Source: a virus. From it: a DNA stretch of 64,000 nucleotides. The stretch is from IMG/VR virus record IMGVR_UViG_3300001201_000002, positions 1 to 64,000 of that record; one strand, written 5' to 3'. A program made the translations under genes and the position numbers. The notes under the pieces were generated by a model that ran no database searches, was not told the DNA's origin, and saw only the letters and a list, made by a program, of their open reading frames with translations. This document shows, in pieces, positions 72 through 52,171 of this stretch; the first letter of the stretch is position 1; the number at the start of each line of letters is the position of its first letter.

Positions 72-147
72 TGGTCAGGGCGGTAGGACTCGAACCTACG
101 ATCTCCGCATTCCAAATGCGGCACTTTACCAGCTAAGCTACGCCCTG
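72..147 (-). tRNA. tRNA-Pro (anticodon UGG), CCA encoded
   Basis: Reverse complement folds as a full cloverleaf: acceptor CAGGGCG/CGCCCTG, D stem GCTT/AAGT, anticodon stem CCGCA/TGCGG with loop TTTGGAA, T arm GTAGG-TTCGAGT-CCTAC, discriminator A plus CCA. Confidence 0.9.
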
Positions 148-3013: not shown

Positions 3014-3214
3014 ATGGCGACGGAAGACCAGAATAAGCTATCAACAGTCAGATGTACCTTCTCAACTACTGAGGGTGCAACAGTTGGAAAGTTCTATAAA
3101 ACCAAGTGGTTAGGCCATTTGGGTATGCAGGGCGTAGAGACCAACAATGGCACCTTCACACCAATCAAACTCATCCATGCAGTCTATGAAGAGGACAATA
3201 CCAATGAATCATGA
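3014..3214 (+). CDS. hypothetical protein (66 aa)
   Basis: ATG after GGAGG. The longer upstream extension in the ORF track lacks an RBS. Confidence 0.5.
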   Translation: MATEDQNKLSTVRCTFSTTEGATVGKFYKTKWLGHLGMQGVETNNGTFTPIKLIHAVYEEDNTNES

Positions 3215-4004
3215 CGCCCAGAAAAACCTTGAAGAGACCTATTCGAAGTATCAGCTGATGCCGGTGCTTCGCTCTGAATTCGGAGAGATAGTCGAAGGTT
3301 TCGATGACCCAGACTGGGGCAAATTCGTCGTAGATGTGCTGTGTCAGATCTATCTGCATCGCCAAGCAGACGTCACCACAATGGTAGGTGTGCTGTATCC
3401 AGTCCATGGAGAAACACCTCAGATCGTGGCAGACAAATTGCTCGTTGCCGCGGAAGAAGACTACATCGACTTCGATGAGGATCGCCAACGTTTCAGCGTG
3501 ATCTATGACCTCACCGACGATGTCGTCTCGATGCTGGACAAATATCAGTATCCACTGCCGATGATCACACCTCCACTTCCTGTCAAATACAACAACCAGA
3601 CAGGATATGTGACCATCCACAACTCAGTCGTGCTGAACACAGCTGGCAGTGACTACTTCGACGACAAGGACATGTGCCTTGACCACCTGAACCGGGCGAA
3701 CTCTGTTCCGCTCACACTCGACGCTGATGTGATCAAATCACCTGAAGGTCGTTACTCCATGCCCAAGAGAAAATCGGGTGAGGACTTCAACGATTTCCAA
3801 AAACGCCTACGCCAGGCGACCATATTCTATGACACATCTCTCAAAGTCATGGATGAGGTGGCTCAGCTCTCCGATCAGATCTTCCTAACTCATAGGTTCG
3901 ATCGCCGCGGCAGATGCTATAGCTCTGGCTACCACATCAACACACAAGGCACAGACTACAACAAAGCTGTGCTTCAACTCGCAAACAAAGAGGTACTATC
4001 ATGA
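3204..4004 (+). CDS. T7-like RNA polymerase, N-terminal subunit (N4 RNAPII gp15-like, RNAP1)
   Basis: FLTHRFDRRGRCYSSGYHINTQGTDYNKAVLQLA matches the T7 RNAP DxxGR block (DWRGRVYAV..FNPQGNDMTKGLL). At 266 aa it is the size of N4 gp15. Confidence 0.85.
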   Translation: MNHDAQKNLEETYSKYQLMPVLRSEFGEIVEGFDDPDWGKFVVDVLCQIYLHRQADVTTMVGVLYPVHGETPQIVADKLLVAAEEDYIDFDEDRQRFSVIYDLTDDVVSMLDKYQYPLPMITPPLPVKYNNQTGYVTIHNSVVLNTAGSDYFDDKDMCLDHLNRANSVPLTLDADVIKSPEGRYSMPKRKSGEDFNDFQKRLRQATIFYDTSLKVMDEVAQLSDQIFLTHRFDRRGRCYSSGYHINTQGTDYNKAVLQLANKEVLS

Positions 4005-28666: not shown

Positions 28667-29005
28667 ATGACCCACCACATTGACAAACTGGTTGGGGAAC
28701 GCATTAAATCAGTTCGACTGACGCAAGGCCTTTCCCAAGAGGAGCTGGCCTCTAAGATCGGCACCTCATTTCAACAACTACAGAAGTACGAATCGGGCAA
28801 GAACCGGATCAGTGCATCTCGTCTTTTCGATCTGGCTAAAGCCATGGGCATGCCTGTTAGCTACTTCTTTGCTCAGAATTCAAAGACAACCCCACTCCTG
28901 GACAAATCGACTGCCACTCTGGTAGGTCGGTACTCCGAACTTCCACAAGAACGACAGCAGCTCGTTTTCAAACTCATCAAGGAACTCTCCAATGGCAGCA
29001 CTTAA
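28667..29005 (+). CDS. XRE-family HTH transcriptional regulator
   Basis: VGERIKSVRLTQGLSQEELASKIGTSFQQLQKYESGKNRISASRLFDLAKAMG is a canonical HTH_3 domain. Confidence 0.85.
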   Translation: MTHHIDKLVGERIKSVRLTQGLSQEELASKIGTSFQQLQKYESGKNRISASRLFDLAKAMGMPVSYFFAQNSKTTPLLDKSTATLVGRYSELPQERQQLVFKLIKELSNGST

Positions 29006-30266
29006 CGAAGGTCAGCAGGCAGTATTCATGGAAGTGATCGACTTCCTAGACTCTGACGAGCAATTCATGGATGTCAATGGTGGCGCCGGCACTGGCAAGA
29101 CCTTCTTGATCTCCAAGATTGCGGACAACATTCTGCAGCATAAGCCTGCTGGTTCTCCTCTTCACACGGTTGCGATCACTGCAACAACCAACAAAGCAGC
29201 AGCTGTCATCTCGGACGCTATGCCTCACCGGGCCGGCGAGATCGGGACAGTCTACAGCTTCATGAACCTGCGTCTCCAGGATAACTATCAGACTGGTGAA
29301 TCCAAGGTTGTACCTAACCGGAACTTCGAAGTCCACCGCGGCACCCTGTTGATCATCGACGAAGACTCAATGGTCAACGCTGAACTGTTCAAGTGGCTGC
29401 AGCAAGGCTTGGATTCAACCTGCAAAGTCATCTTCGTTGGTGACCGGAATCAGCTCGCACCTGTGAAGGAAGATCTCTCTCCAATCTTCACCCAAGGATA
29501 CCGAACCATCGGCCTAACTCAGCCGGTACGGAACTCTGGGCAGCCTGCGTTGATGGCTCTATGTGAGCAAGCCAAGCAGACAGTCTTGACGGGTGTCTTC
29601 ACACCAATCGTTGAGGTCCCAGGTGTCATCGACATCATTGATGGGCCTCAGATGGAAGGTCTCCTCCAGCGGGAATACACCACTGAGGATCCAGGCAAGC
29701 GTCTACTTTCCTACACAAATCAACGGGTTATCGACTACAACGAATATATCCGTGATCTGCGCGGATACACTGATCCATACGAGATAGGTGAGATCCTCTC
29801 CAACAACCAGTCAGCTGAATTGGCCGGCAAGACTCGCCTCTACACTGACCAGATCGTGGAAGTTGTTTCGATCCAGAAAGACTACATGGACTCGCAAATC
29901 GTCCCTGGCTACGACATCCAAATGATCGACCTCACAGTTCGTGATGTGATGAACGGGACCGAATATTTCGTAACCTGCTTCGCCCTGTCAGAAGACCGCA
30001 AGCAAGCAATGAAGCTTTATGCCGGCGCAAAGAAGTGGGACCGGTACTACAAGATCCGGAATAACTATCCTGATCTTCGCTCGGTCTCAGCATCGACAAC
30101 TCACAAAGCCCAAGGCTCTACCTATGACGAGGTGATTGTCGACTTGGCTGACATTGGTACATGCACAAATTCTGCACAAACAGCGCGGATGCAGTACGTT
30201 GCCTTGTCACGTCCAAAATCTCGGATTTACATCCGTGGGACACTGCCTGATCGTTACTTCGCATGA
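28992..30266 (+). CDS. SF1 (RecD/Dda-like) DNA helicase
   Basis: Walker A GGAGTGKTF, Walker B LLIIDEDSMV and TTHKAQGSTYDEV. Confidence 0.85.
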   Translation: MAALNEGQQAVFMEVIDFLDSDEQFMDVNGGAGTGKTFLISKIADNILQHKPAGSPLHTVAITATTNKAAAVISDAMPHRAGEIGTVYSFMNLRLQDNYQTGESKVVPNRNFEVHRGTLLIIDEDSMVNAELFKWLQQGLDSTCKVIFVGDRNQLAPVKEDLSPIFTQGYRTIGLTQPVRNSGQPALMALCEQAKQTVLTGVFTPIVEVPGVIDIIDGPQMEGLLQREYTTEDPGKRLLSYTNQRVIDYNEYIRDLRGYTDPYEIGEILSNNQSAELAGKTRLYTDQIVEVVSIQKDYMDSQIVPGYDIQMIDLTVRDVMNGTEYFVTCFALSEDRKQAMKLYAGAKKWDRYYKIRNNYPDLRSVSASTTHKAQGSTYDEVIVDLADIGTCTNSAQTARMQYVALSRPKSRIYIRGTLPDRYFA

Positions 30267-30472
30267 AACTAACCCAGGCTCAAAAGAAGTGGCTGACAGC
30301 CCTAAACGAGACTGGTTTCGTGGAGTTCGGATGGTCAATGAGAAATGGTCAACGAAACCGTCCTTTGAGGACTCTTATCCGCTTAGGTCTTGCCGCTGAA
30401 ACCGAAACTCATCCAGATGGTGGGTATTCTTGGGGAGTTATCCCAACACCAGAAGGGAAAGCCTTGTTATGA
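30263..30472 (+). CDS. hypothetical protein (69 aa)
   Basis: ATGA overlaps at both ends. Confidence 0.55.
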   Translation: MKLTQAQKKWLTALNETGFVEFGWSMRNGQRNRPLRTLIRLGLAAETETHPDGGYSWGVIPTPEGKALL

Positions 30473-32454
30473 AATATGAAATCGTAGGCACCACAACACG
30501 AGACCCAGAGATTGCTATCCTGGTTCCCACCATCAAAGTATCGGAGATCAAGAAACACTATTACGACCCGTATCTCAAAGCTTTGGACCGGGATGTGATG
30601 GTCTGCGATCTCTACATCAATGCGGAATACTTCAAGGTCCTCACAAAGCGCAGCAAGACAGACGCTTCGATCGGTGACGTGATCGAGACAGTTATCCCTG
30701 GCTTGTATGCGACCTACGCGCCCCACTATTCACGTGTCTTCTACGATCCTGAGAAAACCAATTCGAAGATCCAGATTGCTATGGAGGCCACGACGAAGTG
30801 GATGGGTGGAGACACCAAGGTCCTTGGGTCTGACATCATCAAGTTCGCTGAATACCCGAACACCGATGCAGAGATTGAAGCCTGGCTTGAGAAGCTGCTC
30901 GACATGGATTGCGATCTGTCCTGTGACATTGAGGGCTTCTCCCTGAAGCACTACGATGCCGGGGTCGGCACGATTACATTCTGCTGGAACGACCATGAGG
31001 GTATTGCCTTTTCAGTCGACTATTTCCCATCTGACGGGCGCGATCCGCTTGTCCACGGGATGAACGTTACCAACCCACGGATCCGTGCAGCCTTGAAGAG
31101 TTTCTTCGAGCGTTTCGCTGAATCCGGCAACAAGATGATCTATCACAACATCTGTTACGACGTATATGTTCTGATTTATCAACTGTTTATGGATCACATC
31201 CTCGACCAAGAGGGTTTACTCTATGGACTCAAGATCTTGTTGGCAAACTGGGATTGTACCCAGTTGATCAGCTATCTGGCGACAAACTCCTGTGCCGGCA
31301 ACGAGCTCAGTCTCAAGGCCCAAGCTCAGGAATACGCTGGCAACTACGCCCAAGAGGACATCAAAGACATCTGTCTGATCCCTGAAGCCGATTTGCTAGA
31401 GTACAACCTGATCGACGGCCTGGCCACATGGTATGTGTTCAACAAAAACCACCCAATCATGGTGGCTGATGATCAAGAAGACATCTACAACCGGATCTTT
31501 AAGCCGGCTGTGGCCGACATCATTCAGATGCAACTGACCGGTATGCCAATCAACATGCCTAAAGTTGTGGCTTTGGATAAGAAGCTTCAGAAAGAATCTG
31601 ATCTGAATGTTCAGCGCATGCTGTCAACCCAGGTGGTTCAGGACTTCGTCTATGAACTCGAAGAACGGGCACTTGCCAAGAAGAACCTGAAGCTGAAGAC
31701 CAAACAGGTTGATCGGTCTGACCTCGGAAAGACCAAAGATCTCGTTGTCGAATTCAACCCCGGCAGCGCAAACCAACTCCAAGATCTGCTCTATTCAGAA
31801 GACTTCCTGGGACTCCCTGTCCTAGATTTGACCAAGAGCAAATTGCCGGCCACTGGCGCCGACACACTTGAGAAACTGAAGAATCACACCGCTGATCCTG
31901 ATGTGCTCAAGTTCTTGGACATCCTGATCGAGTTCAAAGCCTCAGCAATCATCCTATCTACATTCCTGCCGGCCTTCTTGAAGGCAGCACAGGGACCTGA
32001 CGGATGGTGGTATCTCTTCGGGAACTTCAGACTGGGCGGCACTGTGTCTTCACGACTGTCCTCAAACAACCCCAACCTACAGAACATTCCATCCTCTGGT
32101 TCAACCAAGGTCAAGCAACGTTTGGCCAAGATGATCAAGGAATGCTTCGAGCCACCTGATGGGTGGTTGTTCGTTGGACTCGACTTCGACTCTCTCGAAG
32201 ACAAGATCTCTGCGGTAACGACCCGCGATCCTATGAAGATCAAGGTCTACTCAGACGGCTATGATGGTCACTGCCTACGTGCGCTTGCCTACTTTGGTGA
32301 GCACATGCCTGACATTGAGCTGGCGCCCGACGACGCAAAGACTTTCTGCACAGAAGTCGACGGTGAAAAGATCTACTTCCACGCTGAGGAAGAGATCGAC
32401 TACCAAGGGAAGAAGATGACCGGACAGGAATTCTTCGACCTCATCAACTCGTAA
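30469..32454 (+). CDS. family-A DNA polymerase, part 1 (3'-5' exonuclease plus palm motif A)
   Basis: Exo I LSCDIEGFSL, Exo II YHNICYDVYVL, NPNLQNIP and motif A LFVGLDFDSLEDKI. Ends at TAA 32452-32454. Confidence 0.85.
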   Translation: MKYEIVGTTTRDPEIAILVPTIKVSEIKKHYYDPYLKALDRDVMVCDLYINAEYFKVLTKRSKTDASIGDVIETVIPGLYATYAPHYSRVFYDPEKTNSKIQIAMEATTKWMGGDTKVLGSDIIKFAEYPNTDAEIEAWLEKLLDMDCDLSCDIEGFSLKHYDAGVGTITFCWNDHEGIAFSVDYFPSDGRDPLVHGMNVTNPRIRAALKSFFERFAESGNKMIYHNICYDVYVLIYQLFMDHILDQEGLLYGLKILLANWDCTQLISYLATNSCAGNELSLKAQAQEYAGNYAQEDIKDICLIPEADLLEYNLIDGLATWYVFNKNHPIMVADDQEDIYNRIFKPAVADIIQMQLTGMPINMPKVVALDKKLQKESDLNVQRMLSTQVVQDFVYELEERALAKKNLKLKTKQVDRSDLGKTKDLVVEFNPGSANQLQDLLYSEDFLGLPVLDLTKSKLPATGADTLEKLKNHTADPDVLKFLDILIEFKASAIILSTFLPAFLKAAQGPDGWWYLFGNFRLGGTVSSRLSSNNPNLQNIPSSGSTKVKQRLAKMIKECFEPPDGWLFVGLDFDSLEDKISAVTTRDPMKIKVYSDGYDGHCLRALAYFGEHMPDIELAPDDAKTFCTEVDGEKIYFHAEEEIDYQGKKMTGQEFFDLINS

Positions 32455-32463
32455 GGAGACCGT

Positions 32464-33207
32464 ATGCTTAGTTTCACTGAGCCGGTCACAGGTGCCTCAG
32501 AGGTTTCGGCCTCTGAGCACAACGTGGCCAGGGTAAATTCCATCAAGAAAAAGTACAAGCATTGGCGCCAGGAATCGAAAGTTCCTACGTTCGCTCTGAC
32601 GTATGACGGGACCTACATCACTCTGATGAAGAACCTCGGCATGAGTGAGGAGCTGGCCAAGTCAATCGAAGAAAACTACCACAAGCTTTATGCCGTTTCG
32701 GATGCCTGGGTAGCGGATAAGATTGACCAAGCCTCCAGGGATGGGTACATCACCGCTGCATTCGGGCTGAGAGTGCGAACTCCGCTCATGAACCAAGTGG
32801 TAATGGGTACGAGCAAGACACCTCATGAGGCTGCCTCTGAGGGCCGCACAGCGGGTAACGCTCTAGGTCAGTCTTGGTGCATGCTCAACAACCGGGCAGC
32901 ATCTGAGTTCATGGCTCTGGTTCGGTCCGGTGAGCACCGACTGGACATCAAACCATGTGCTCACATCCACGATGCCCAATACTACTTGATCCGCGACAAC
33001 ATGGAGACGTTGATGTACGTCAACACCCATTTGTCTCAAGCGGTTCGCTGGCAAGATGATCCACTGATCGAGAATGAACACATCTCAATGAGTGGGCAGC
33101 TGGAAATCTTCCACCCAACCTGGTGTCACGGATTTGACATCCCTAACGAAACTACCGAAGAGGAAATCGGATGTCTGATCAAAGAACACCTGGAAAGCCT
33201 CAGCTAG
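32464..33207 (+). CDS. family-A DNA polymerase, part 2 (motifs B and C)
   Basis: Motif B RQESKVPTFALTYDG and motif C HIHDAQYY. ATG lies 9 nt after the part-1 stop in the same reading frame. The RBS AAGGAG overlaps that stop. Confidence 0.85.
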   Translation: MLSFTEPVTGASEVSASEHNVARVNSIKKKYKHWRQESKVPTFALTYDGTYITLMKNLGMSEELAKSIEENYHKLYAVSDAWVADKIDQASRDGYITAAFGLRVRTPLMNQVVMGTSKTPHEAASEGRTAGNALGQSWCMLNNRAASEFMALVRSGEHRLDIKPCAHIHDAQYYLIRDNMETLMYVNTHLSQAVRWQDDPLIENEHISMSGQLEIFHPTWCHGFDIPNETTEEEIGCLIKEHLESLS

Positions 33208-41956: not shown

Positions 41957-44900
41957 TCAATCCTTCGCCCAGTCGATCAAGTTAATCCATGGGTTGAGAT
42001 CTGGGGCGCCAAAGAGCATGTCTGAGCCTAATGAGTAGTCCAAACGACCATCCGCCGCCACAGAGAGCAAGTTGTCGTCTACGGGCGAGCCCACGTCCTC
42101 AGCCAGGCCACCAGTGATCAGAGCACCCACAGGATTGTTCTGCAAGGTCTTCAAACCAATCTTCATGATCCGGATCTTAAACGCAAGGAACCAAGATCCA
42201 CCCATAGACTCCAAGTAGGAACGTGTGCGGCCCGGCAATACGGAGAAGTTCACAAACTCTTCGTTCACCTCTTGCATCGCTTCATCGTGAGTCTTGCCTT
42301 GCTCAACCATGTGATCGTAATAGATGGCCTTCGCAATGAAATCACCATACTGGACCGACTTGTTCGCAGCCTTGTAGATAGGCGTGTCACGGCTCACCAG
42401 AGCGTATTTGGCGACTGTCTGTAGTTTTCCTGGCAAACGATCCAGTTGACCCTCGACGTAGTCCACAATACCTCCGCCAGTTAGCTCTTTGTCCATCTCA
42501 GTGATACCCTCGGAGATGTTCTTGTAAGCACCGGCTGCAACCAATGGAGCGATACTCATACGAGCGTTTTGATCCCAAACAGCCTGACGCTGCTTCTGCA
42601 GGATCTTCACTTGGTTCTTGTCTGTACCGGCCAGCTGGATACGTGCATTGAGTTCGATAATCTTGGTCACGTTCTCGTTGTACTGCTCGATCTCAACTAA
42701 CTTGGCGCGTGTGCCCTTAACGATGGATTTAACTCCGACACCACGAGTCGCCAACTGCAACATGTTAGCCTGAGCGTTCATGAATGGGACAACCAAGGAA
42801 CGAACAACAATCAAATCTTTCGCACTAGAGATGACGCCCTGAGTACCTTCTTCAATCTGGCTGAGTATAGGGATGGCCTTATCCCCTAGCAGTGCTTTAG
42901 CGGTGGCACGAACTGTTGTCTGTACTCCCTCTGGGAGGCGTGTCTTTCCGGACCACACATCAACGATTGAAGGTTCACGGTATCCTGTGGTCAAATTGAC
43001 CATATCCTTGCGGATCATGAACCCACCTTCTTCACCGAAGATCTCTTCGATCATCAAACGAGTCTCAGGAGAAATCACGTTCCAGCTGTCTGCGAAGATC
43101 GGATCATCTGACTTGCTCATATCAACGAACAGGCCATCAGTGCCTTCCTCACGGTTGTCGTAGATGTCTTTGACAGCCTGGATAAGCTCAGCGTTGTATT
43201 TACGTGCGAACTGCTCTTCAGCCTGGCGACCGGCCCATGCACCAACCATGAGAGCCAGGTTAGAGCGAGGAGCTGTGTATGCCTCTTTTAGATCAGGGTT
43301 CAGCGCTCGCTCATAACCAATGACACCATCAGCATCGAATACTGGGATCAGGACTTCTTTATCATCAGATACGTCACCCAACTGCTCAAGCTTAGATGTG
43401 ATGGTTTGAACCGATGCAGCATCGTTAATGTAGCCGGATGTGGTCCCATTCACAGACTGTCCCGTATCAGCATCAACACCACGGTATGAAGCCTGAACCG
43501 ATTGGATAACTCCCTGGGAATACATACCGCCCTGTTTTACGGTCGTTGCATAGTACCCGTAGGTGTTTGAAGAAAAATCCAGATCCGCGGATGCGTCAGC
43601 AACCCGTGTGAAACCTTTGCGAACCAGACTATCCATGTCTTTATCGTTACGGATGACAAGCTGGGCTCCACCAGAACCTTGATCAGGAATGAAGCCTTTG
43701 TATCCATTCATCTGGGCTTCTGTAGAGACAAGACCCTTTGTAATTTTGTCCTCTTCCTGACGGTTAAGGCCTTGCATGTAGACAACCAGAGCAGAAACAC
43801 CATCGGGATCTGCGTTGTAAAGGTCGACAATCTCCTGCTTAGCCTCGACCGACTGCCCCTGCAGAGCATACAGAGAGATGAGCTGGTCGATCTCAGCAGT
43901 CATGTTCGCATCGAACTCAGTTGTGATCTTGTTGATCGCGTATGCGTTCTTCAGCATCTGGTGACCGGCGCCATTCCCATTCATGAAGTTGGCCAGCTGT
44001 TGAGCCTTAGTCAGAACGAAGTCCGCACCGTCCTTGGAATAGTTGGCTACGATCGCTTTCTCAGCAGCTTCGATCTTCTTGGTTAGACGAGCCTCGCTCA
44101 TAACCAGACCAAGAGAAGCATTTGGGTTGTTCACATCGAACAAAGCCGCAAAGTCAGTCTTGCCTAGAACAGCGTGCATTGTTTTCCACTGATCTGCAGT
44201 TGGCTTGTTCTCGAAAGCACCTGCCAGAATGTTAGGCAGATCTTCACGGAAAGCCTGGCGCACAGAAGAAACCGCATAGTTGGTACGGTCGAGCAGAGCA
44301 ACAACGCTGGAGTTGATGGAGTCTGTGCCAACAACCTCTGTGACGAACTCACGGATTGGAACGAAGTGATCGAGAGCCTGTCCGAAGTGTGTGACATCTT
44401 TCAGACCTTTGGCAGCCAGCTTGCTACGATCCTCGGTCAAGAATGAAGAAGCTAGAGCAACAGAACCGGTCACCGCTTGTACCAGTGCGTTTGCATCTTC
44501 GTCTTTCATCTTGCGGTCAAACTCAGACGCCCGGCCGGCCAATAGATCCATGGCTCCGGAAGTTGCTTTGTTCGCACGGTTGATGTTGCTCATCAGGCCT
44601 TTCAGAAGGCTGTACTCTTTGTCACCTTCCTGGATGATCAGCTCTTCAGCCGCAGAACCGTCTGCAGTGTCGATTGAACCAAGGACCTTAGCCATCAGCT
44701 TAGATGTGGTCGCCTCAAGGAAACCATCCAGATTGCCGTCATAGATTGGAGACTCAGGTTCAGGCAACTTGTCCAGAGCAGCGCGGAAGCCGTTAGATGT
44801 CTGAGACAGAGCCAACAGAACAGCGACAGCGTCTGACACGTCTTCATCGTTGCTTGTGTTGCCGAACATGTCCATGACAGTCTGGAAGCGCTCAGCAGAG

Positions 44901-47900
44901 TTCACAGAACCAAACATGTTAGGGCTCAGGTTAGCTGACACGTGTTCAAACATCTTGTGCAGTGCGACACCTGAAGTTGGATCGAGACGCATCTCAGTGG
45001 CCAACACAGTGTGGATCGCCATGAATGTCTGCTTCTGGTATTCGCTCATTGAGAAGCCACCAAAGTCAAGATCACGAACCAGTGACTTAGAAGAGGCCAC
45101 GTAACGGATCAGCTGATCTTGATCGACAGTCCCATCAGTTACAGAGTTGTCCAACCGTTCACGAACAAGGTCGATCCAGAAGTTAGAGAAACGCTTAGCT
45201 GCATCAGAGACTCCGTCGCCCGATCCATCGTTTCCATCACCACCATTCCCGTTGCCGCCTTGGCCCAACATACGAGTGTTGAACAGGATGTTTGAGAACA
45301 TGTCACGTGGGACAGCTCCACCCAGTACCCGGCTGATTAGGGCAATGACTTTCTTGGTCAGTGTCTGTGTTTCGGTCGCCTTCGTCTTGTTGATCAGGTC
45401 TTGGTTTGACAGGTTCCAAGCCATGAATTCGTTCAGAGCAACTGCTTTGCTCATCGCAGTTCCAGAGTTCTGGTTCAACAGGATAGAGGCAGACGCTTTG
45501 TTCGCAGCAGCCTGCAGCTCAGGAGACTCTTTAGAGAAGTCCATGCCCATAAACTCATTCATAAGCAGCTCAAGGCGCTCGACCGCTTCATCACGGTTGC
45601 CCTCATAGTGAGCCAGAACCTTACCGAATGTCGCCAAGTGGACCAGTTCGTGGGACATGGTCTCAGCGTTGTTGTTGACCATGAAGATCACGTTGTTCTC
45701 AACATCGTACATGCCGTTCGCATCGACCAGAGTTTGGCCGTCAGTTGCGAAGTTCTCACGACGGTAGTCTTGAAGCATATCCAAAGGACCGGTCACCACA
45801 CGAGCACCCTCAGGGATCTCTGAGCGAATTGCTTTCAGAACCTGACGGATCTCTGCAGATTTGGTTGACTTCAGAAGAGCATCAATAACAGTCGTCGCCG
45901 GAGCAACGCCCACTGTGTTGAATTCACCTTCCACAGCTTCACCTACTGGAGTGTCTGACTCCATGCCGATGTCAGTCTCATTGTTGAAGACTGCGTCTGG
46001 AACGTTGTTGATCTCACGACGGATCATGTGGTTGATCTGGGCCAAGTCCGCTTCACCTTCGCCGCGGGTGTATGCAGAATTTGAGCCACCCATGTGATCG
46101 ACGGAGACTGGGATGTTCTTGAATGCCGCCTTACGTGCTTGGTTCTGTTTGTGCATTTCTTGCACAGCTTCCAGCAGTTCTTGAGCATTCAGAGCAGTTA
46201 CGCTGGTCTTGTCCGCAGCCTCTTTAGTAGCAGCAAATGCCGCTTCCAGGAGATCGCTATCGTCACCGACAGACTCAAGGAATGTGGAGAAGTCAGCTTC
46301 TACGTCTGCCAGGACATCACGGTCCCAGTTCTGCATCACAGCTTCGTTGATCTGGTTTGCATAGCTAAAGACTTTATTGATAGGCATGTCGATCCCGTCA
46401 AAGACAGGAAGCGTATCAGTCGGCGCATTGTCTGCAGAATAGATCGTGTTCATCATCATCGCGTCACCACGACCGATTGACAAATATGGGATCACCTTGA
46501 CACCGGCCAGTGCCGGCTGAGCCATAGTCGCAGGCATACGAAGAGCACCGTCCATTGTGGAAGAGAGCTCGATGTTTGAGGCAGCAGGTTCGAATGAACC
46601 AACAGCAAGGGTCTGTGTGCCGTTGGAGTAAGTCGGAGCATAGGCCCGCAGTTCACGAACAAGGTTGTTGTAGTCGCGGTTGCTCAGCTCAGAGATGATA
46701 CCCTTGCCTTGCTTGTTGCGACGTAGCTTGCCTTCTGATGCACGCTTCTCAGCCAGCTCTTCCAAACGACGCTGGAACAGGGCTTGCAAGAAGTTGGTCT
46801 GGACATTGGTCAAGAATACCAGAGCATCGTTCACGTTTGTGATCTTATCACCGATCACCTTCTTAGCAGTGGTCGACAGGATGTCACCAAGGCCTTTGGT
46901 TACAGTGTCTTCGAAGCGCTTCATTGACTCTCCGTCGAGGAAAGTAGAACGCCAGTCTTCACCCTTCACGAGTGTCTCACCGAAGATCGTTTTGAAGTCC
47001 TCAGCTAGGTTTGGATAACCAAGGAATGAGGCAGCATCTTGGCCCGCTGGGACCTTCAACATCTGCTCATAGAACTCAAGGACCATGTCCTGAGCGATGC
47101 CGGCAGCCACACCACGAACCCCAGATCCGTAGACAGTCTTGGTCATCGGAGACTTGGATGTGGAACGTGTCATCTCGTATTGGCCGTCTGAGATCTTCAG
47201 GTCACCGAATGCCGCAGAGAAACGAGCCACCGCATGGAGCATAGCTTTTTCGTTACCCTTAGCGTTGCCGATCCGTGTTGCCAGTTCACGCTGGGCTGTC
47301 TTGGATGTCACTTCGTAAAGGTCAACCTCACCCTGAGTGAATAGTTCATTCAGAGTTCCCTCAGTTGTGCCGAGGAAGAAACCAACACGCTGGAAGTTCT
47401 CAAAATCAGACTGGGTCAATTCACCTTGGCCGAAGTTGCTCATCATGTTGGCTGGGCCATCAGTCTTACCGTCAAGCTCGAAGCTCATGGTTGTGTTGAA
47501 CTCAGCCTCTGTGCCTTTGGCTACTGCAAAGCGATACTGAGCGACTGCAACCACAGCAGAGATCTCAGCCATTTCAGCAGTGCCGATAGCTTCACCGAAT
47601 GCCACGCTGTCAATCTCACCGGTCTCAACCCACTGTTGGGCTAGATCAGTTGCCTCACCGAAGCGCTCATTGAAAGCAGCCTCTACGTTTTCAAGGATCA
47701 TCTTATGGTCTTGGTTCTCAACTTTGAACAGATCTGCAGCCTGAGCCACAGTCAACCAGAACGCATCTTTGTCAGCCTGGTTTGTCATGTCCAATGTGGA
47801 GTGAGTCGGTGTCACCATCGCACGAAGGATCTTGTTGTTCTGAGGGTTGATGCCCTTGAACTGATGACGGCCAACTTTAGAGATGCCGACCGGGTAGTAA

Positions 47901-50900
47901 ACCGGAACAGCTTCATCTGAGTTCTGGCCATTGATTGCATCAACCAAAGCCATCGCATCTTCAAAGTCACGCTCGATAGACAGGTTCTTGCCTGTGATCG
48001 AAGCCTTTAATGGGTGCCCATCAGAGAGGTCTGTAGCATCGCGGAAACCAAGAACGTTATTGAGGACAGGGAAACCGAGAGCAGAAACAAAACCAGATAC
48101 GCCTTCGCTAATGAAGTGAGGAGTGTCCTGCATGCGCTTGAGAGCAGCTTTCTCGATTCCTGAGAGCGGTACTGACGAGCGGTTTTGATTGCTGCTAGTC
48201 GTTGCGATAGGTGTTCCGATTGACGGTCCATTGGTATCCTCCGGAGCTACAAGCTTAGCAACAGAGTCACGGGCTTCAAGGCCGATCTTCTCCTGCATCT
48301 TCTTCAGTCGTTCGATGTTGATCGTCTTGGCAGTCACCAACTTGCCATCTTTACGGACAGGCAGATCAGTCATTTCGATAAGACCGATGTCTGCAGATAC
48401 AGAAATCAGTTCCTTGACCAGAGACTCCACAGCACCACGGGAGTTGATGATTGGGGCGTCCTTGGCTTCTGTCATGTTCCAGATCTTCAGAACAGAGCGA
48501 GCCACTGACTCAGATACCTGGCGAGGAGAAACACCAAACATCAGGTCACGCATATTCTGGTCTGTCAGGTCTGAGAAGTTCACACCCATATCTTCCAGAG
48601 TATCGTCCATCAGGGCAGGGTCTGTAGCGCGAGCAGAGCTCATCCAGTCGATCAGTGCAACAGTTGCCATGGACAACAGAGCCGGGTCGTACTGGCCTGT
48701 CTCAGGGTTCACAAACATGGTGTTTTTGTACTGACGGATCGCTGTAGGGTCGACGGAGTCAGATGCCAAAGCTTCAGCCACAGTGTGGTTCTTGTCGAAC
48801 TTCACAGTCTTCAGACGTTGGTTCATACGCACGGAGATTGGACGCAGGAGAGCCTTAGCAATCTGCTTGTATTCAGGGCTTTGAACCTTCCCAATCAGAG
48901 AAGCACCATCAGTGTAATCGACCTCAGCACCAGTTGGTGTGAAGGAGTCTTGGAAGATCTGAGGCAGCTCATATGTATCACGGTCTGATACAACTTCTTG
49001 AGCAGCAGCATCCTCTTCAGCTGTTATCGCCTCCTCAGTCGCATCCGCCGCTGGCGCGTCAGAAGCTTCTTCGATCGCCTCTGGTGCCGTTGTGTTGTCT
49101 GGCTCTACTTCTGTTTCTTGGACTTCTTGTTTTCCGTCCGAATTCGTTTCTGTGTTGCTTTCGTTTTCTGCAACCGGGTCAGTGCTTTCTTCTTGTAGTG
49201 TCGGGCCTTCATTTGTGTTCTCGATGTTCAGGGCTGGTACTGCAACCTCACCAGCAGGAAATAGTTCAGGGAATGTGCGAGCCAAGGTGTTGTAGACGTT
49301 GGCAGCTGCACGAGCATCATTCTCAACCTCTTGAGCAAACCTGACACCATTCAATTTGTGGCCTTGATAGGTTACCGGGCGAGCAGATCCAGCTTCACCA
49401 GGGTTGACCATCTTACGGCCTTTGAGGCTTAGAGAGCGGAATGATTGCTGAGTACCCTTACCTTTAGAGTCTGCTTCAGCAGCAGATCGAGACAAGGCAT
49501 CAGTCTTGTTTGTCATGTGCTCAACGAACTTGGCGAATTCAGATGCCACTTCAGCGACTGGAACCAAAACACCATCAGATCCGCTGACTTCTTTAGTCTC
49601 AGACTGGGCACCTACAAAAATGTCCGCAGCAAAGTCATTGATTGACCGAGCACCTGCAAAACCACCCACCTGGATGGAGCGTGAAGCGTCTTCGATCTTC
49701 ATTTCTGGCTTCAGACGATTAGGGTTTGCTTGGTATGCTGGCTTTTGGCTCAGAGCAACACGTTCGTTATTGGAGATCTCAACTTGCTGACCCATGTGAT
49801 TGTTTACAGTGGTCGCAATTTCAGATGCCGCACGAAGAAGCTTTACTTCCTCGTCAGAGACAGTGCCGGCAGGTTGCTTGAGGATCTTGTTCACAAACGA
49901 AGGATTGACGTTAGCTGGGTTGACCTTGGCAACCTCAACAGCAGAACCGATCTCTGTGTCGTTCAGTTCTGTGTTTTCGCTTTGGGTCTCATTTAGGTTT
50001 GTGTTCTCGAATTCGCTACGAACAAATGTCGTTGCTTCTTGGCTGTATGCCTTTACCGCGGCGCCGGCAGCTTTGACTTTGTCGACGACTTTTCCTGCAG
50101 TGGTGCGAGTTGAGATGCTTTCTCCTTTGGATGGGGCATTACCAAACAAATCAGGGAAAGCACGGATGCTGTTTACACCGCTCTTCTTGACGTTCCCGTC
50201 GATGATGACAGGAGTCCCATCAGCAGTCGTACCGGCATTTTCAATTGTCGCATCATCCCACAACAGACCGTCTTTCTGGACAACTGCAGCGATAGGATCA
50301 GACTCAGCTTGAGTGGAGATTGTCTGTACTTTAGGCATGACTTCCACGATCAGGTTTCCTACCCGTTGGCGAGCAATAGGCTTCAAAACATTGGGGTGAT
50401 CCAGGTAGCCTTCCTGATACTCTTCCCCGATACGAATAACGACGTCAGGGTCAGATGTGCCCATAACAACACGGCTTTGTCCGCCACCAAGCTTCTCGGT
50501 GATCGCGTATCCAGCCTCATTCAACAGAGCCTCGACATTCCCCAGATCAGGAGAAGCCGCGATTGTCTGTGCAGTTGCATCGTTGGTTTCTTGATTGAAA
50601 GCAGAACCAGCTTCACTTACTTCAGCGTTACTTTGGCCAGCAGATGCACCAACCATCTCACTGAACTCAGGAGAAACAGGCTGAGGTGTCTCAGGAGAGT
50701 ATGTCTCGATACCAGGAGTGACTGTCTCTGTGGTTTGGCTTAGACGCACCGCTGGTATCTTATCCGCAGCTGCCTTGATGATTCCAGGAACTGAACTGAG
50801 AGCATTGATCCCAGTGCCACCAACACGAGCCACTTGGCCCGGTCCAGCAAGGACACCAGCCATACCAGCTCCACCAATGGCACCAGTTGCGATTTGCTCA

Positions 50901-52171
50901 CCAACACTTTCAGCCAAAAGCTGTGAAGGATCCACTTGGTTCTGAATTGCTACGTTCTGGTTGAACTGAGCTGAACCACCTTGGAGACCTTCTTCCAGAG
51001 CCTGCTTACCAAGCTCGGAGAACTGATCGACCATGTTACCACGCATTGTGGTGATAGGAGCAGCGTTGAATTTGCCGGCCCCTGTCGCCAGTGTCAGGGC
51101 AGCAGCTGTAGGGAATTGACGATGGAAGGCTTCCAAACCAGCAGAAGCAGCGACCAACTCTTGAGCACGGGCAGGATCCATCCCACCGTCGATGAATTCA
51201 ATGAACTCAGGAGAGCCCATCATGTCATCAAAAGAACGGCCCATCACTGCGTTGACAGTGTCCGTGTAAGCACCTGAGGCTTCTGAAGCACCAACACCTG
51301 CAGCGACACCCGCTGACGTGATGAACTTCTGGCCAGTAGAAAGAGGATCAACACCGAGTGCATCTGAAAGACGTGTGGCCAGTTTACCTGTCCCAGCGGC
51401 AATTTTAGCTGAAGGCCCTAATGAACCAAGAGCCTGAGCAATAGTGTCAGTGACCAGAGCACCGTCGGAAAGAATGCGCTCACCAGTGTTCAGAGTGTCA
51501 CGACCAATACGGGCAACTGAAGCCATAAACTCAGAACCACCTTCGGCAACATCCCGCTCATACTGGGCAAGAGAGTCGGCCGCATCCAGTTGAGCTTCTA
51601 CGTTAGATAGGTTCTGACGGTCGAGGAATTCCTGAGATTTTTGATCATTCAACCAGTTGGTTGCAATATCTGTGCCTTGCGCGATAACAACAGAACCACG
51701 TTGAAGGAGTTCGTTCTTCGTATCCACACCTGCGGCAATTTCATCATTGACAGCAGAGCCTACAACATCGCGGATGTTATTACCTGACCCGGCAGCCGCA
51801 AGAGCTGTTGAAGCAAGGCCACCTACCATAGAAGTCAGGCCGCCCAATGCACCGAGAGCTACATCACCAGCTTGTTGGCCAGTTGTACGTTGCGCATCTT
51901 GAACACGACGCTGTTCTGTAAGTTCCTGAGAGATGTTTCCACGTTGGTTTGCAATCTGTTCGCCATACTTAGCGACGAGCTGACCATGTGTCATTTCAAG
52001 AAGATCACGTCCCAATCCTTCTTCGGTCAGGTCATTGCCTTCACGAGAGGAAACAGCAAGCTGCTCTACCAGCGGAGACCCAGACGACAAAGCTTCCGCC
52101 AAGGTATCACTTGGGGAAGCTTCTAGGAACGCTGGATCACGCAGTGGCGAATTCAGGTACGTGTCTGACAT
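41957..52171 (-). CDS. virion-encapsidated RNA polymerase (N4 gp50-like vRNAP), 3404 aa
   Basis: Giant ORF with a central T7-like RNAP domain. SKVGRHQFKGINPQNNK is the DxxGR-type block. FELDGKTDGP is motif A (~47471). TRSTSKSPMTKTVYGSG is motif B (~47121-47171). LPVFDGIDM is motif C (~46388-46405). Confidence 0.95.
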   Translation of the reverse strand: MSDTYLNSPLRDPAFLEASPSDTLAEALSSGSPLVEQLAVSSREGNDLTEEGLGRDLLEMTHGQLVAKYGEQIANQRGNISQELTEQRRVQDAQRTTGQQAGDVALGALGGLTSMVGGLASTALAAAGSGNNIRDVVGSAVNDEIAAGVDTKNELLQRGSVVIAQGTDIATNWLNDQKSQEFLDRQNLSNVEAQLDAADSLAQYERDVAEGGSEFMASVARIGRDTLNTGERILSDGALVTDTIAQALGSLGPSAKIAAGTGKLATRLSDALGVDPLSTGQKFITSAGVAAGVGASEASGAYTDTVNAVMGRSFDDMMGSPEFIEFIDGGMDPARAQELVAASAGLEAFHRQFPTAAALTLATGAGKFNAAPITTMRGNMVDQFSELGKQALEEGLQGGSAQFNQNVAIQNQVDPSQLLAESVGEQIATGAIGGAGMAGVLAGPGQVARVGGTGINALSSVPGIIKAAADKIPAVRLSQTTETVTPGIETYSPETPQPVSPEFSEMVGASAGQSNAEVSEAGSAFNQETNDATAQTIAASPDLGNVEALLNEAGYAITEKLGGGQSRVVMGTSDPDVVIRIGEEYQEGYLDHPNVLKPIARQRVGNLIVEVMPKVQTISTQAESDPIAAVVQKDGLLWDDATIENAGTTADGTPVIIDGNVKKSGVNSIRAFPDLFGNAPSKGESISTRTTAGKVVDKVKAAGAAVKAYSQEATTFVRSEFENTNLNETQSENTELNDTEIGSAVEVAKVNPANVNPSFVNKILKQPAGTVSDEEVKLLRAASEIATTVNNHMGQQVEISNNERVALSQKPAYQANPNRLKPEMKIEDASRSIQVGGFAGARSINDFAADIFVGAQSETKEVSGSDGVLVPVAEVASEFAKFVEHMTNKTDALSRSAAEADSKGKGTQQSFRSLSLKGRKMVNPGEAGSARPVTYQGHKLNGVRFAQEVENDARAAANVYNTLARTFPELFPAGEVAVPALNIENTNEGPTLQEESTDPVAENESNTETNSDGKQEVQETEVEPDNTTAPEAIEEASDAPAADATEEAITAEEDAAAQEVVSDRDTYELPQIFQDSFTPTGAEVDYTDGASLIGKVQSPEYKQIAKALLRPISVRMNQRLKTVKFDKNHTVAEALASDSVDPTAIRQYKNTMFVNPETGQYDPALLSMATVALIDWMSSARATDPALMDDTLEDMGVNFSDLTDQNMRDLMFGVSPRQVSESVARSVLKIWNMTEAKDAPIINSRGAVESLVKELISVSADIGLIEMTDLPVRKDGKLVTAKTINIERLKKMQEKIGLEARDSVAKLVAPEDTNGPSIGTPIATTSSNQNRSSVPLSGIEKAALKRMQDTPHFISEGVSGFVSALGFPVLNNVLGFRDATDLSDGHPLKASITGKNLSIERDFEDAMALVDAINGQNSDEAVPVYYPVGISKVGRHQFKGINPQNNKILRAMVTPTHSTLDMTNQADKDAFWLTVAQAADLFKVENQDHKMILENVEAAFNERFGEATDLAQQWVETGEIDSVAFGEAIGTAEMAEISAVVAVAQYRFAVAKGTEAEFNTTMSFELDGKTDGPANMMSNFGQGELTQSDFENFQRVGFFLGTTEGTLNELFTQGEVDLYEVTSKTAQRELATRIGNAKGNEKAMLHAVARFSAAFGDLKISDGQYEMTRSTSKSPMTKTVYGSGVRGVAAGIAQDMVLEFYEQMLKVPAGQDAASFLGYPNLAEDFKTIFGETLVKGEDWRSTFLDGESMKRFEDTVTKGLGDILSTTAKKVIGDKITNVNDALVFLTNVQTNFLQALFQRRLEELAEKRASEGKLRRNKQGKGIISELSNRDYNNLVRELRAYAPTYSNGTQTLAVGSFEPAASNIELSSTMDGALRMPATMAQPALAGVKVIPYLSIGRGDAMMMNTIYSADNAPTDTLPVFDGIDMPINKVFSYANQINEAVMQNWDRDVLADVEADFSTFLESVGDDSDLLEAAFAATKEAADKTSVTALNAQELLEAVQEMHKQNQARKAAFKNIPVSVDHMGGSNSAYTRGEGEADLAQINHMIRREINNVPDAVFNNETDIGMESDTPVGEAVEGEFNTVGVAPATTVIDALLKSTKSAEIRQVLKAIRSEIPEGARVVTGPLDMLQDYRRENFATDGQTLVDANGMYDVENNVIFMVNNNAETMSHELVHLATFGKVLAHYEGNRDEAVERLELLMNEFMGMDFSKESPELQAAANKASASILLNQNSGTAMSKAVALNEFMAWNLSNQDLINKTKATETQTLTKKVIALISRVLGGAVPRDMFSNILFNTRMLGQGGNGNGGDGNDGSGDGVSDAAKRFSNFWIDLVRERLDNSVTDGTVDQDQLIRYVASSKSLVRDLDFGGFSMSEYQKQTFMAIHTVLATEMRLDPTSGVALHKMFEHVSANLSPNMFGSVNSAERFQTVMDMFGNTSNDEDVSDAVAVLLALSQTSNGFRAALDKLPEPESPIYDGNLDGFLEATTSKLMAKVLGSIDTADGSAAEELIIQEGDKEYSLLKGLMSNINRANKATSGAMDLLAGRASEFDRKMKDEDANALVQAVTGSVALASSFLTEDRSKLAAKGLKDVTHFGQALDHFVPIREFVTEVVGTDSINSSVVALLDRTNYAVSSVRQAFREDLPNILAGAFENKPTADQWKTMHAVLGKTDFAALFDVNNPNASLGLVMSEARLTKKIEAAEKAIVANYSKDGADFVLTKAQQLANFMNGNGAGHQMLKNAYAINKITTEFDANMTAEIDQLISLYALQGQSVEAKQEIVDLYNADPDGVSALVVYMQGLNRQEEDKITKGLVSTEAQMNGYKGFIPDQGSGGAQLVIRNDKDMDSLVRKGFTRVADASADLDFSSNTYGYYATTVKQGGMYSQGVIQSVQASYRGVDADTGQSVNGTTSGYINDAASVQTITSKLEQLGDVSDDKEVLIPVFDADGVIGYERALNPDLKEAYTAPRSNLALMVGAWAGRQAEEQFARKYNAELIQAVKDIYDNREEGTDGLFVDMSKSDDPIFADSWNVISPETRLMIEEIFGEEGGFMIRKDMVNLTTGYREPSIVDVWSGKTRLPEGVQTTVRATAKALLGDKAIPILSQIEEGTQGVISSAKDLIVVRSLVVPFMNAQANMLQLATRGVGVKSIVKGTRAKLVEIEQYNENVTKIIELNARIQLAGTDKNQVKILQKQRQAVWDQNARMSIAPLVAAGAYKNISEGITEMDKELTGGGIVDYVEGQLDRLPGKLQTVAKYALVSRDTPIYKAANKSVQYGDFIAKAIYYDHMVEQGKTHDEAMQEVNEEFVNFSVLPGRTRSYLESMGGSWFLAFKIRIMKIGLKTLQNNPVGALITGGLAEDVGSPVDDNLLSVAADGRLDYSLGSDMLFGAPDLNPWINLIDWAKD

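Follow-up and report, generated by a model that had tools for sequence, protein, structure and literature searches.

A probable two-subunit family-A DNA polymerase with an empty cargo site in an N4-like phage

Why is the DNA polymerase gene of an N4-like phage interrupted by a single in-frame TAA codon that overlaps a new Shine-Dalgarno (SD) sequence? The gene lies in the virus record IMGVR_UViG_3300001201_000002 of IMG/VR, of which positions 1 to 64,000 were analyzed (64,000 nucleotides, nt; hereafter the window), and it consists of two open reading frames (ORFs) on the plus strand, ORF A and ORF B, which together are treated as the window polymerase. An earlier note on this DNA left two possibilities, namely that the enzyme is made as two subunits or that a full-length protein of ~911 amino acids (aa) arises by ochre read-through or suppression. 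The comparative evidence supports the two subunits and speaks against the full-length product, because the frames of the two ORFs vary among relatives, genes intervene between them, and no protein carries the junction internally. We consider the polymerase to be very probably a naturally split, non-covalent two-subunit family-A enzyme, which in this phage has an empty cargo site. Beyond the earlier note, we observed that the stop lies within an insertion of ~65 aa specific to split enzymes, that the break is a slot for cargo genes, that the SD sequence drives the cargo in relatives, and that the cultured phages Pollock and Pylas also have a two-piece polymerase.

The motifs that characterize a family-A polymerase (PF00476 with a 3′-5′ exonuclease) are all intact in the window, and motifs A, B and C and Exo I to III are spread over the two ORFs (Table 1). 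ORF A contains the N-terminal domain, the 3′-5′ exonuclease (Exo I-III), the thumb, palm motif A and the helices of the fingers up to the loop that precedes the O helix, whereas ORF B contains the O helix (motif B), the remaining fingers and palm motif C. This distribution, which the earlier note had already read from the letters, was confirmed by alignment and by Pfam, in which the DNA_pol_A profile is cut cleanly at the ORF boundary (scores of 83.7 and 35.4 bits for the two ORFs, with a cutoff of 34.3). ORF A is 56-65% identical to the single-chain polymerases of N4 and roseophages (DSS3phi2, 65%; N4 gp39, 56%; Sulfitobacter phage AX was also in the alignment), and the polymerase of N4, rightly described before as a single chain, served as an unsplit homologue. 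A mechanical list of ORFs places the start of ORF A at TTG 30430; we prefer ATG 30469 because of the alignment with homologues (MKYEIVG vs. MHYEIIG).

The junction at 32440-32470 reads ...CTCATCAACTCG TAA GGA GAC CGT ATG CTT..., and the last codon of ORF A is TCG. As previously stated, the two ORFs share a frame ((32464-30469) is divisible by 3) and are separated only by the TAA and three sense codons (9 nt), and a consensus SD sequence crosses the stop, with the ATG (32464) 9 nt later. One base change in the TAA would fuse the two ORFs. The shared frame alone is a 1-in-3 coincidence, and the break exceeds chance because its position is conserved rather than because of the frame. The SD sequence is unpaired in the centroid fold, the RNA structure at the junction is not special (z = -0.14), and scans of the junction for promoters, terminators and RNA structures found nothing over background.

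A search with the ORF B protein returned 1517 homologues, the best 120 of which were examined as clusters at the 90% identity level. More than 110 clusters, nearly all of the best 120 of the 1517, are 245-256 aa long, are 56-89% identical to ORF B and cover it from residue 1, and their sources are independent assemblies of JGI, ENA, Logan and Tara data, among them contigs of ~70 kb. The same break in more than 110 independent clusters excludes a sequencing or assembly error, the refutation that the earlier note had foreseen. Furthermore, 21 of 89 loci taken from IMG/VR are, besides the window, split at the same place, and the comparison with related N4-like polymerase genes that had been proposed found an equivalent stop in each of them. 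In the window, 9 nt separate the stop of A from the ATG of B; the corresponding gap measures 10 nt in L019, 47-64 nt in four loci and 192-825 nt in the other sixteen. Frame offsets of 0, 1 and 2 occur in 10, 5 and 6 of the 21 related split loci (11, 5 and 6 when the window is counted), and the halves of L019 are out of frame in spite of the short gap. Because the frames differ and whole genes with their own stops intervene in the relatives, read-through cannot be the general mechanism. The layout is that of genes in pieces: adjacent ORFs on the same strand jointly cover a single-chain homologue, have their own translation signals and are kept in relatives.

In every unsplit homologue, motifs A and B are 204-207 nt apart with no insertion. 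In split enzymes only, ~65 extra residues lie between the two motifs, and the stop, the SD sequence and the ATG are all inside this insertion, which comprises a tail at the end of ORF A and a head at the start of ORF B. All enzymes split at this site have the tail and the head, which the unsplit ones lack, and the consensus of the head is ML+h..Ph..h..V..SEH(N/D)V. A profile search of the PDB sequences matched the Taq, Klenow and Bst polymerases. In the resulting alignment, the ~79 profile positions of the insertion correspond to only ~10 Taq residues directly before MRRAAKTINFGVLYG (the O helix), and this places the break in the fingertip loop in front of that helix. The catalytic aspartates of motif A and motif C consequently fall on different chains.

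According to the substitution ratios (nonsynonymous to synonymous, dN/dS), the tail and the head are under purifying selection: their joint values are 0.08-0.32, against 0.02-0.09 in the core, and a comparison of the window with L004 gave 0.05 in the core and 0.08 in the tails. Their length and pattern are held over 40-90% divergence. With an unpaired alignment, AlphaFold2 gave the tail a helix and five short strands, with a predicted local distance difference test score (pLDDT) of ~80. A tail profile was searched against 1.84 billion representative proteins and gave 87 hits at an expectation value (E) of at most 1e-3; in all true hits the tail is extreme C-terminal (e.g., residues 629-676 of 678), and none of the 1.84 billion representative proteins is a fused polymerase of ~900 aa with the tail inside. 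A search for a natural fused form with a junction peptide produced 16 candidates, none of them fused. When a hidden Markov model (HMM) of the tail was run against six-frame segments of the window and 98 loci, it detected polymerase fragments only and no other split gene with the module. The only non-polymerase matches of the tail profile, P0219 and P0249, are partial and lie in repeat units of large bacterial surface-type proteins (e.g., WYRGTINGKTVYIHSNNV), which may hint that the tail hairpin resembles a small beta-barrel repeat.

The gap between A and B is empty in the window, whereas it holds whole genes in most of the related split loci. Tad2-like genes and genes of the Acb2/Tad1-hairpin type are found there, in addition to small crAss001_48-like proteins and ORFs that have no Pfam match (Table 1), and a 141-aa ORF in the gap of L005 is Tad2-like by eye only. 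The type of cargo varies even between close relatives, and the closest relatives of the window all have cargo: the 99-aa ORF in L004 (89% identity), the ORF in L005 (85%), a Tad2-like gene in L093-95 (83%), and RyR and Acb2/Tad1 in L096 (80%). A homing endonuclease between the pieces is absent from the window, the spacer of which is 9 nt; at the window's site, HNH_3 with NUMOD4 was found in no locus but the distant L076, and L052, L069, Pollock and Pylas carry it at a site close by. By sequence comparison, the gap in the relatives is a fast-turnover anti-defence slot within an essential gene. The L004 99-aa and L006 72-aa ORFs are, by their position, candidate new anti-defence genes.

The signals at the edges of the gap follow the same arrangement. 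An SD-like TAA/TGA GGA(A/G)... after the stop of A is conserved, and in relatives it precedes the ATG of the cargo, whereas in the window it serves ORF B directly. The ATG of B overlaps the stop of the cargo in relatives (TAATG/TGATG), which indicates translational coupling of the two. That cargo can be lost is demonstrated by the deletion scar in L027 (3449-3500), in which a remnant of 52 nt keeps the first seven codons (start MKQFIG) and the last codons of the Tad2-like ORF of the near relative L026 (3029-3508). A tblastn search of the window with the cargo ORFs found no homologue elsewhere in it. We believe that the window represents an emptied slot from which the cargo was probably lost.

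In the explanation that we propose, translation of ORF A (75 kDa) would end at the TAA, and ORF B (28 kDa) would be started 9 nt downstream, at the ATG served by the stop-overlapping AAGGAG, either by re-initiation or by fresh loading of ribosomes. Coupled and roughly equimolar amounts of A and B would then be produced from one mRNA. The motif A aspartate would be contributed by one chain and the O helix and the motif C aspartate by the other; neither chain should polymerize alone, and the active site would therefore have to be rebuilt by association. The 44-aa tail and the 20-aa head would most likely form a clasp that holds the halves together. The split appears to be old, and a large clade of N4-like phages, uncultured and for the most part marine, has it in common; in these phages the space between the halves would be an expression slot for accessory genes, including Tad2-like and Acb2/Tad1-like nucleotide sponges, unassigned ORFs and, in one distant lineage, an HNH gene. 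The window would carry this slot in an empty form, its cargo probably having been lost, and the shared frame of the two ORFs would be an accident because the slot is empty. The split itself may have originated by insertion of an endonuclease.

A wider proposal, which we offer tentatively and consider possible rather than probable, is that the tail and the head are a portable non-splicing clasp that moves with homing-endonuclease cassettes. Such a clasp would be an analogue of a split intein without the chemistry and would let an essential gene survive cutting. The gap, co-transcribed and translationally coupled with replication genes, would later have become a fast-turnover slot for anti-defence genes (sponges of the Tad2-like, Acb2/Tad1-like and RyR-like kinds). 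The lack of a re-fused form among the 1.84 billion proteins, though fusion is one mutation away, would imply that fusion through the clasp is selected against.

Could the stop instead be a regulatory valve, with ochre read-through or suppression yielding a functional single-chain polymerase of ~912 aa? The window is permissive in that its ORFs are in frame with four codons between them, one point mutation of the TAA would fuse them, and the phage does encode a tRNA. The earlier note had spoken of a tRNA cluster; a scan of the 64-kb window found a single tRNA, tRNA-Pro (TGG; 72-147, minus strand), with no cluster visible there and no suppressor or UUA-anticodon tRNA. Moreover, the zero-frame downstream ORF is not kept in the relatives, in which other frames or whole genes separate the halves (L019 is out of frame at 10 nt), ORF B has its own strong SD sequence, a G after TAA makes for efficient termination in bacteria, and no fused protein with an internal tail was found among the 1.84 billion representatives. 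We consider this alternative highly improbable. A sequencing or assembly error, or a pseudogene that leaves a dead fragment while another polymerase replicates the genome, would fit the single in-frame stop, which is a classic signature of error, and the 34-aa deletion unique to ORF A. However, the recurrence of the break in independent JGI, ENA, Logan and Tara clusters, the low dN/dS between the window and L004 in both core and tails, and the canonical SD sequence and ATG after the stop leave this explanation practically no chance. A group I or group II intron in the polymerase gene was also considered and rejected: the spacer is 9 nt, and an Rfam search at gathering thresholds found no intron in the window, Pollock, Pylas or eight cargo loci.

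The remaining alternatives concern what the tail and the head are. If they were a minimal or degenerate split intein, trans-splicing would join A and B seamlessly, as in the "fractured genes" (PMC2677866), which share the order of N-part with tail, free-standing gene, and head with C-part. A conserved His-Asn or His-Asp closes the head, and true split-intein pieces do exist at a different site in related polymerases (P0256, P0284). However, the tail begins with a variable residue (A, C, L, V or T), HN is followed by Val where an intein would have Cys, Ser or Thr, several relatives have Asp in place of the Asn, and tail and head together have ~65 aa, about half of the smallest HINT fold (about 130 aa or more). 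Pfam searches with the tail, the head, and the tail plus head at E <= 10 found no intein or Hint match. Trans-splicing is thus very unlikely, slightly more so than read-through. The true split-intein C-terminal pieces (VYDLEIEEDHCYIANDIYVHN followed by S, and GNGIVNHN followed by SSS) are located at the SSxPNLQ site of related polymerases (L040:935-1531, P0256, P0284), and one enzyme family therefore has both breaks with and breaks without an intein. Alternatively, the chains might be joined by the native palm/fingers interface alone, with the tail and the head as neutral leftovers of the splitting element. AlphaFold2 did not dock the head onto the tail, a second kind of tail at the same site is not detectably similar to that of the window, and the split T4-like gp43 and Aeh1 NrdA, as summarized in the literature (PMC2677866), function without known added modules. 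Purifying selection on the tail and the head, their restriction to split enzymes, all of which have them, the length and pattern kept across 40-90% divergence, and the predicted fold of the tail argue otherwise, so that we hold neutrality to be unlikely but worth serious attention.

Several points weigh against the two-subunit enzyme with an emptied slot that we favor. The reading of two subunits draws on comparative evidence rather than on protein-level evidence for this phage, and a trace of read-through product may be made here, as the ORFs are in frame. In the AlphaFold2 model with the unpaired alignment, the overall pLDDT was 67, the predicted template modeling score (pTM) was 0.32, the head was unstructured (pLDDT 44-57) and the model gave no reliable indication about contact between tail and head; the fused region of 483 aa modeled without an alignment reached a pLDDT of 34. 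The judgment that the slot was emptied, rather than empty from the start, draws on the neighbors in a neighbor-joining tree that has no support values. In addition, ORF A has an in-frame deletion in the N-terminal domain that is unique to the window: 34 residues are missing between I50 and N51 (window 30618/30619), and these residues (KAGKGKTPAANIKEYLEDLIPNLLDAGIKLLIVP in L004) are present in L004, L093, L096, DSS3phi2 and N4.

Table 1. Positions of the polymerase features and of neighboring genes in the window, and of genes in the polymerase gap of other loci
Feature	Position	Strand	Remarks
ORF A, large subunit	30469..32454	+	661 aa + TAA; Pfam DNA_pol_A profile 23-199
Exo I, D-I-E, D153-E155 of ORF A	30925..30933	+	invariant alignment columns
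Exo II, YHNICYD	in ORF A	+	homologue alignment
Exo III, YNLIDG	in ORF A	+	homologue alignment
Palm motif A, DFDSLED, catalytic Asp	32182..32202	+	homologue alignment
Tail of A, last 44 codons of ORF A, LAPDDAKTFCTEVDGEKIYFHAEEEIDYQGKKMTGQEFFDLINS	32320..32451	+	absent from all unsplit homologues (alignments)
TAA stop of ORF A	32452..32454	+	equivalent TAA or TGA in all 21 related split loci
SD sequence AAGGAG overlapping the stop	32453..32458	+	ends 5 nt before the ORF B ATG
ORF B, small subunit	32464..33207	+	247 aa + stop; Pfam DNA_pol_A profile 200-303
Head of B, first 20 codons of ORF B, MLSFTEPVTGASEVSASEHN	32464..32523	+	absent from unsplit homologues; conserved throughout the type-I split relatives
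Motif B / O helix, RQESKVPTFALTYDG	32566..32610	+	aligned to Taq MRRAAKTINFGVLYG
Motif C, H-I-H-D; second catalytic Asp = D170 of ORF B	32962..32973	+	I168 H169 D170 invariant
Helicase-like ORF, upstream of polymerase	28992-30266		N4-like neighborhood
3404-aa ORF, giant virion RNA polymerase	41957-52171		N4-like hallmark
Tad2-like (PF11195, E 1e-17 to 1e-25)	gap of L023, L024, L026, L029, L032, L033, L034, L037, L039, L093-95		Pfam
Acb2/Tad1-hairpin (PF24729)	gap of L007, L020, L028, L030, L096		Pfam; with RyR domain in L020, L096
crAss001_48-like small proteins	gap of L007, L029		Pfam
Cargo ORFs without Pfam match	L004:2678-2977 (99 aa); L006:3132-3350 (72 aa)		same slot
Cargo coordinates	L023:2761-3501, L026:3029-3508, L093:3571-4008, L096:3460-4008, L007:2690-3508, L020:2953-3501		examples among loci
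HNH gene in polymerase gap	L098 (Pollock) 3152-3712; L097 (Pylas) 3167-3706		

The genome belongs with the N4-like phages (Schitoviridae), and both the sequence similarity and the neighborhood identify its polymerase as an orthologue of gp39. Downstream of the polymerase are ORFs of 354 and 722 aa (gp42/gp43-like), as in L001 and L002, and the closest DNA matches of the window are roseophages, at less than 80% identity across short stretches. In the neighbor-joining tree, the clade of splits of the window's kind (type I) is nearly monophyletic and sister to the roseophage clade. The exceptions are the unsplit L021 and L035, which fall within the split clade, and the split L023, which falls outside; their placement hints at recombination or lateral transfer of the split cassette.

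A second kind of split (type II) is found at the window's site in a distant lineage (L043, L044, L049 and L076, the last with an HNH gene in the gap). An HMM made only from type-I tails did not detect the type-II tails, and for this reason we do not claim that the two are homologous. In three of these loci, the 47-64-nt gap (L044:3438-3485, L049:3439-3485, L043:3422-3485) has a GC-rich hairpin and then a T run (GGGCCGCC...GGGCGGCTTTTTT), which looks like a terminator set between the halves of one enzyme. Many metagenomic N4-like polymerases are in at least three pieces with extra break sites (P0122 and P0131, 145-148 aa; P0209, 87 aa; P0169, 370 aa; L040:872-3501). These further breaks lie before motif A (head MQDLLVEYLE...), after KVY, and in the thumb/fingers region, each with its own head or tail, and P0209 is an 87-aa middle piece in which about 25 core residues stand between a head and a tail.

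A split of this type is a natural experiment in polymerase assembly, in which the O helix and motif C are on a different chain from motif A, and the conserved module of 44 + 20 residues may be a compact heterodimerization tag for the engineering of split enzymes. For annotation, N4-like polymerase genes of this kind should be recorded as two subunits, not as a pseudogene, an intron or a frameshift, and this matters for marker-gene studies of marine N4-like phages. Moreover, an anti-defence slot inside an essential gene was previously undescribed and would offer a simple route to new anti-defence genes.

Among cultured N4-like phages, a two-piece gp39-like polymerase is present in the Escherichia coli phages Pollock, PMBT57, VEc25, AlfredRasser and SP5M and in the Klebsiella phage Pylas. 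These phages resemble the window in the enzyme family, the genome position, the two ORFs on the same strand, the weakly similar tail of the upstream piece (KVYMGVNVYTVTIEGVDHHIRDDDTIIYDGKTYTGEEFYDAF in Pollock) and the added head of the downstream piece. They differ in having the break ~25 residues farther upstream, between KVY and DGYDGH, and a gene for an HNH homing endonuclease in the gap; in Pollock, no two of the three ORFs share a frame. The type-I tail has no match in 50,697 cultured-phage records, and the type-I-only HMM, from which core residues were trimmed, detects the tails of the Pollock group with E ~2e-3 among 15,531 sequences, no decoy ranking between, which is suggestive but weak evidence that these tails and that of the window are homologous. 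Because Pollock and Pylas are viable, two-piece N4-like polymerases with such tails work. The HNH gene of Pollock has been described as "intron-encoded" (PMC4319500), and the polymerase coding sequence of Pylas is annotated as joined. Given that Rfam detects no intron and that the tail and head on either side are conserved as coding sequence, it is more likely that both HNH genes encode free-standing endonucleases within a gene in pieces. Beyond this "intron" remark, we found no description of a split polymerase in N4-like phages or Schitoviridae in the literature.

The window follows the same genes-in-pieces plan as Aeh1 NrdA/mobE and the split gp43 of T4-like phages, for which one source describes an essential enzyme encoded by two adjacent ORFs, non-covalent reassembly, and a break tied to a homing endonuclease (PMC2677866); for the window, association of the halves would be the corresponding step, for which the viability of Pollock and Pylas is indirect support. 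In contrast to these systems (gp43 belongs to family B), the window polymerase is of family A, breaks before the O helix, has a conserved tail and head and lacks an endonuclease, and its close relatives carry anti-defence genes. The "fractured genes" of Dassa et al. (2009), in which a split intein, along with a free-standing endonuclease, interrupts genes of marine phages (PMC2677866), share their three-part layout, habitat and gene class with the relatives of the window. However, the junction peptides of the window have neither the defining residues nor the size of an intein, and the association would be non-splicing. The OM43 phages MEP401 and MEP402 also have a split DNA polymerase, with an insert; they represent another lineage, related to Zobellviridae. 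In the archaeon Methanothermobacter thermautotrophicus, the replicative polymerase PolB comes from two genes without an intein, according to the same source (PMC2677866), but this enzyme is of family B and its genes are not adjacent. As regards the cargo, Tad2, Acb-type and RyR-like Tad sponge genes have been reported from an anti-signalling hotspot of N4-like phages, a single variable locus adjacent to SSB (bioRxiv 10.64898/2026.06.04.730250). The same families fill the polymerase gap of the window's relatives, but this slot is inside the polymerase gene, and that of the window is empty. The intragenic slot and the SSB-adjacent hotspot are different loci.

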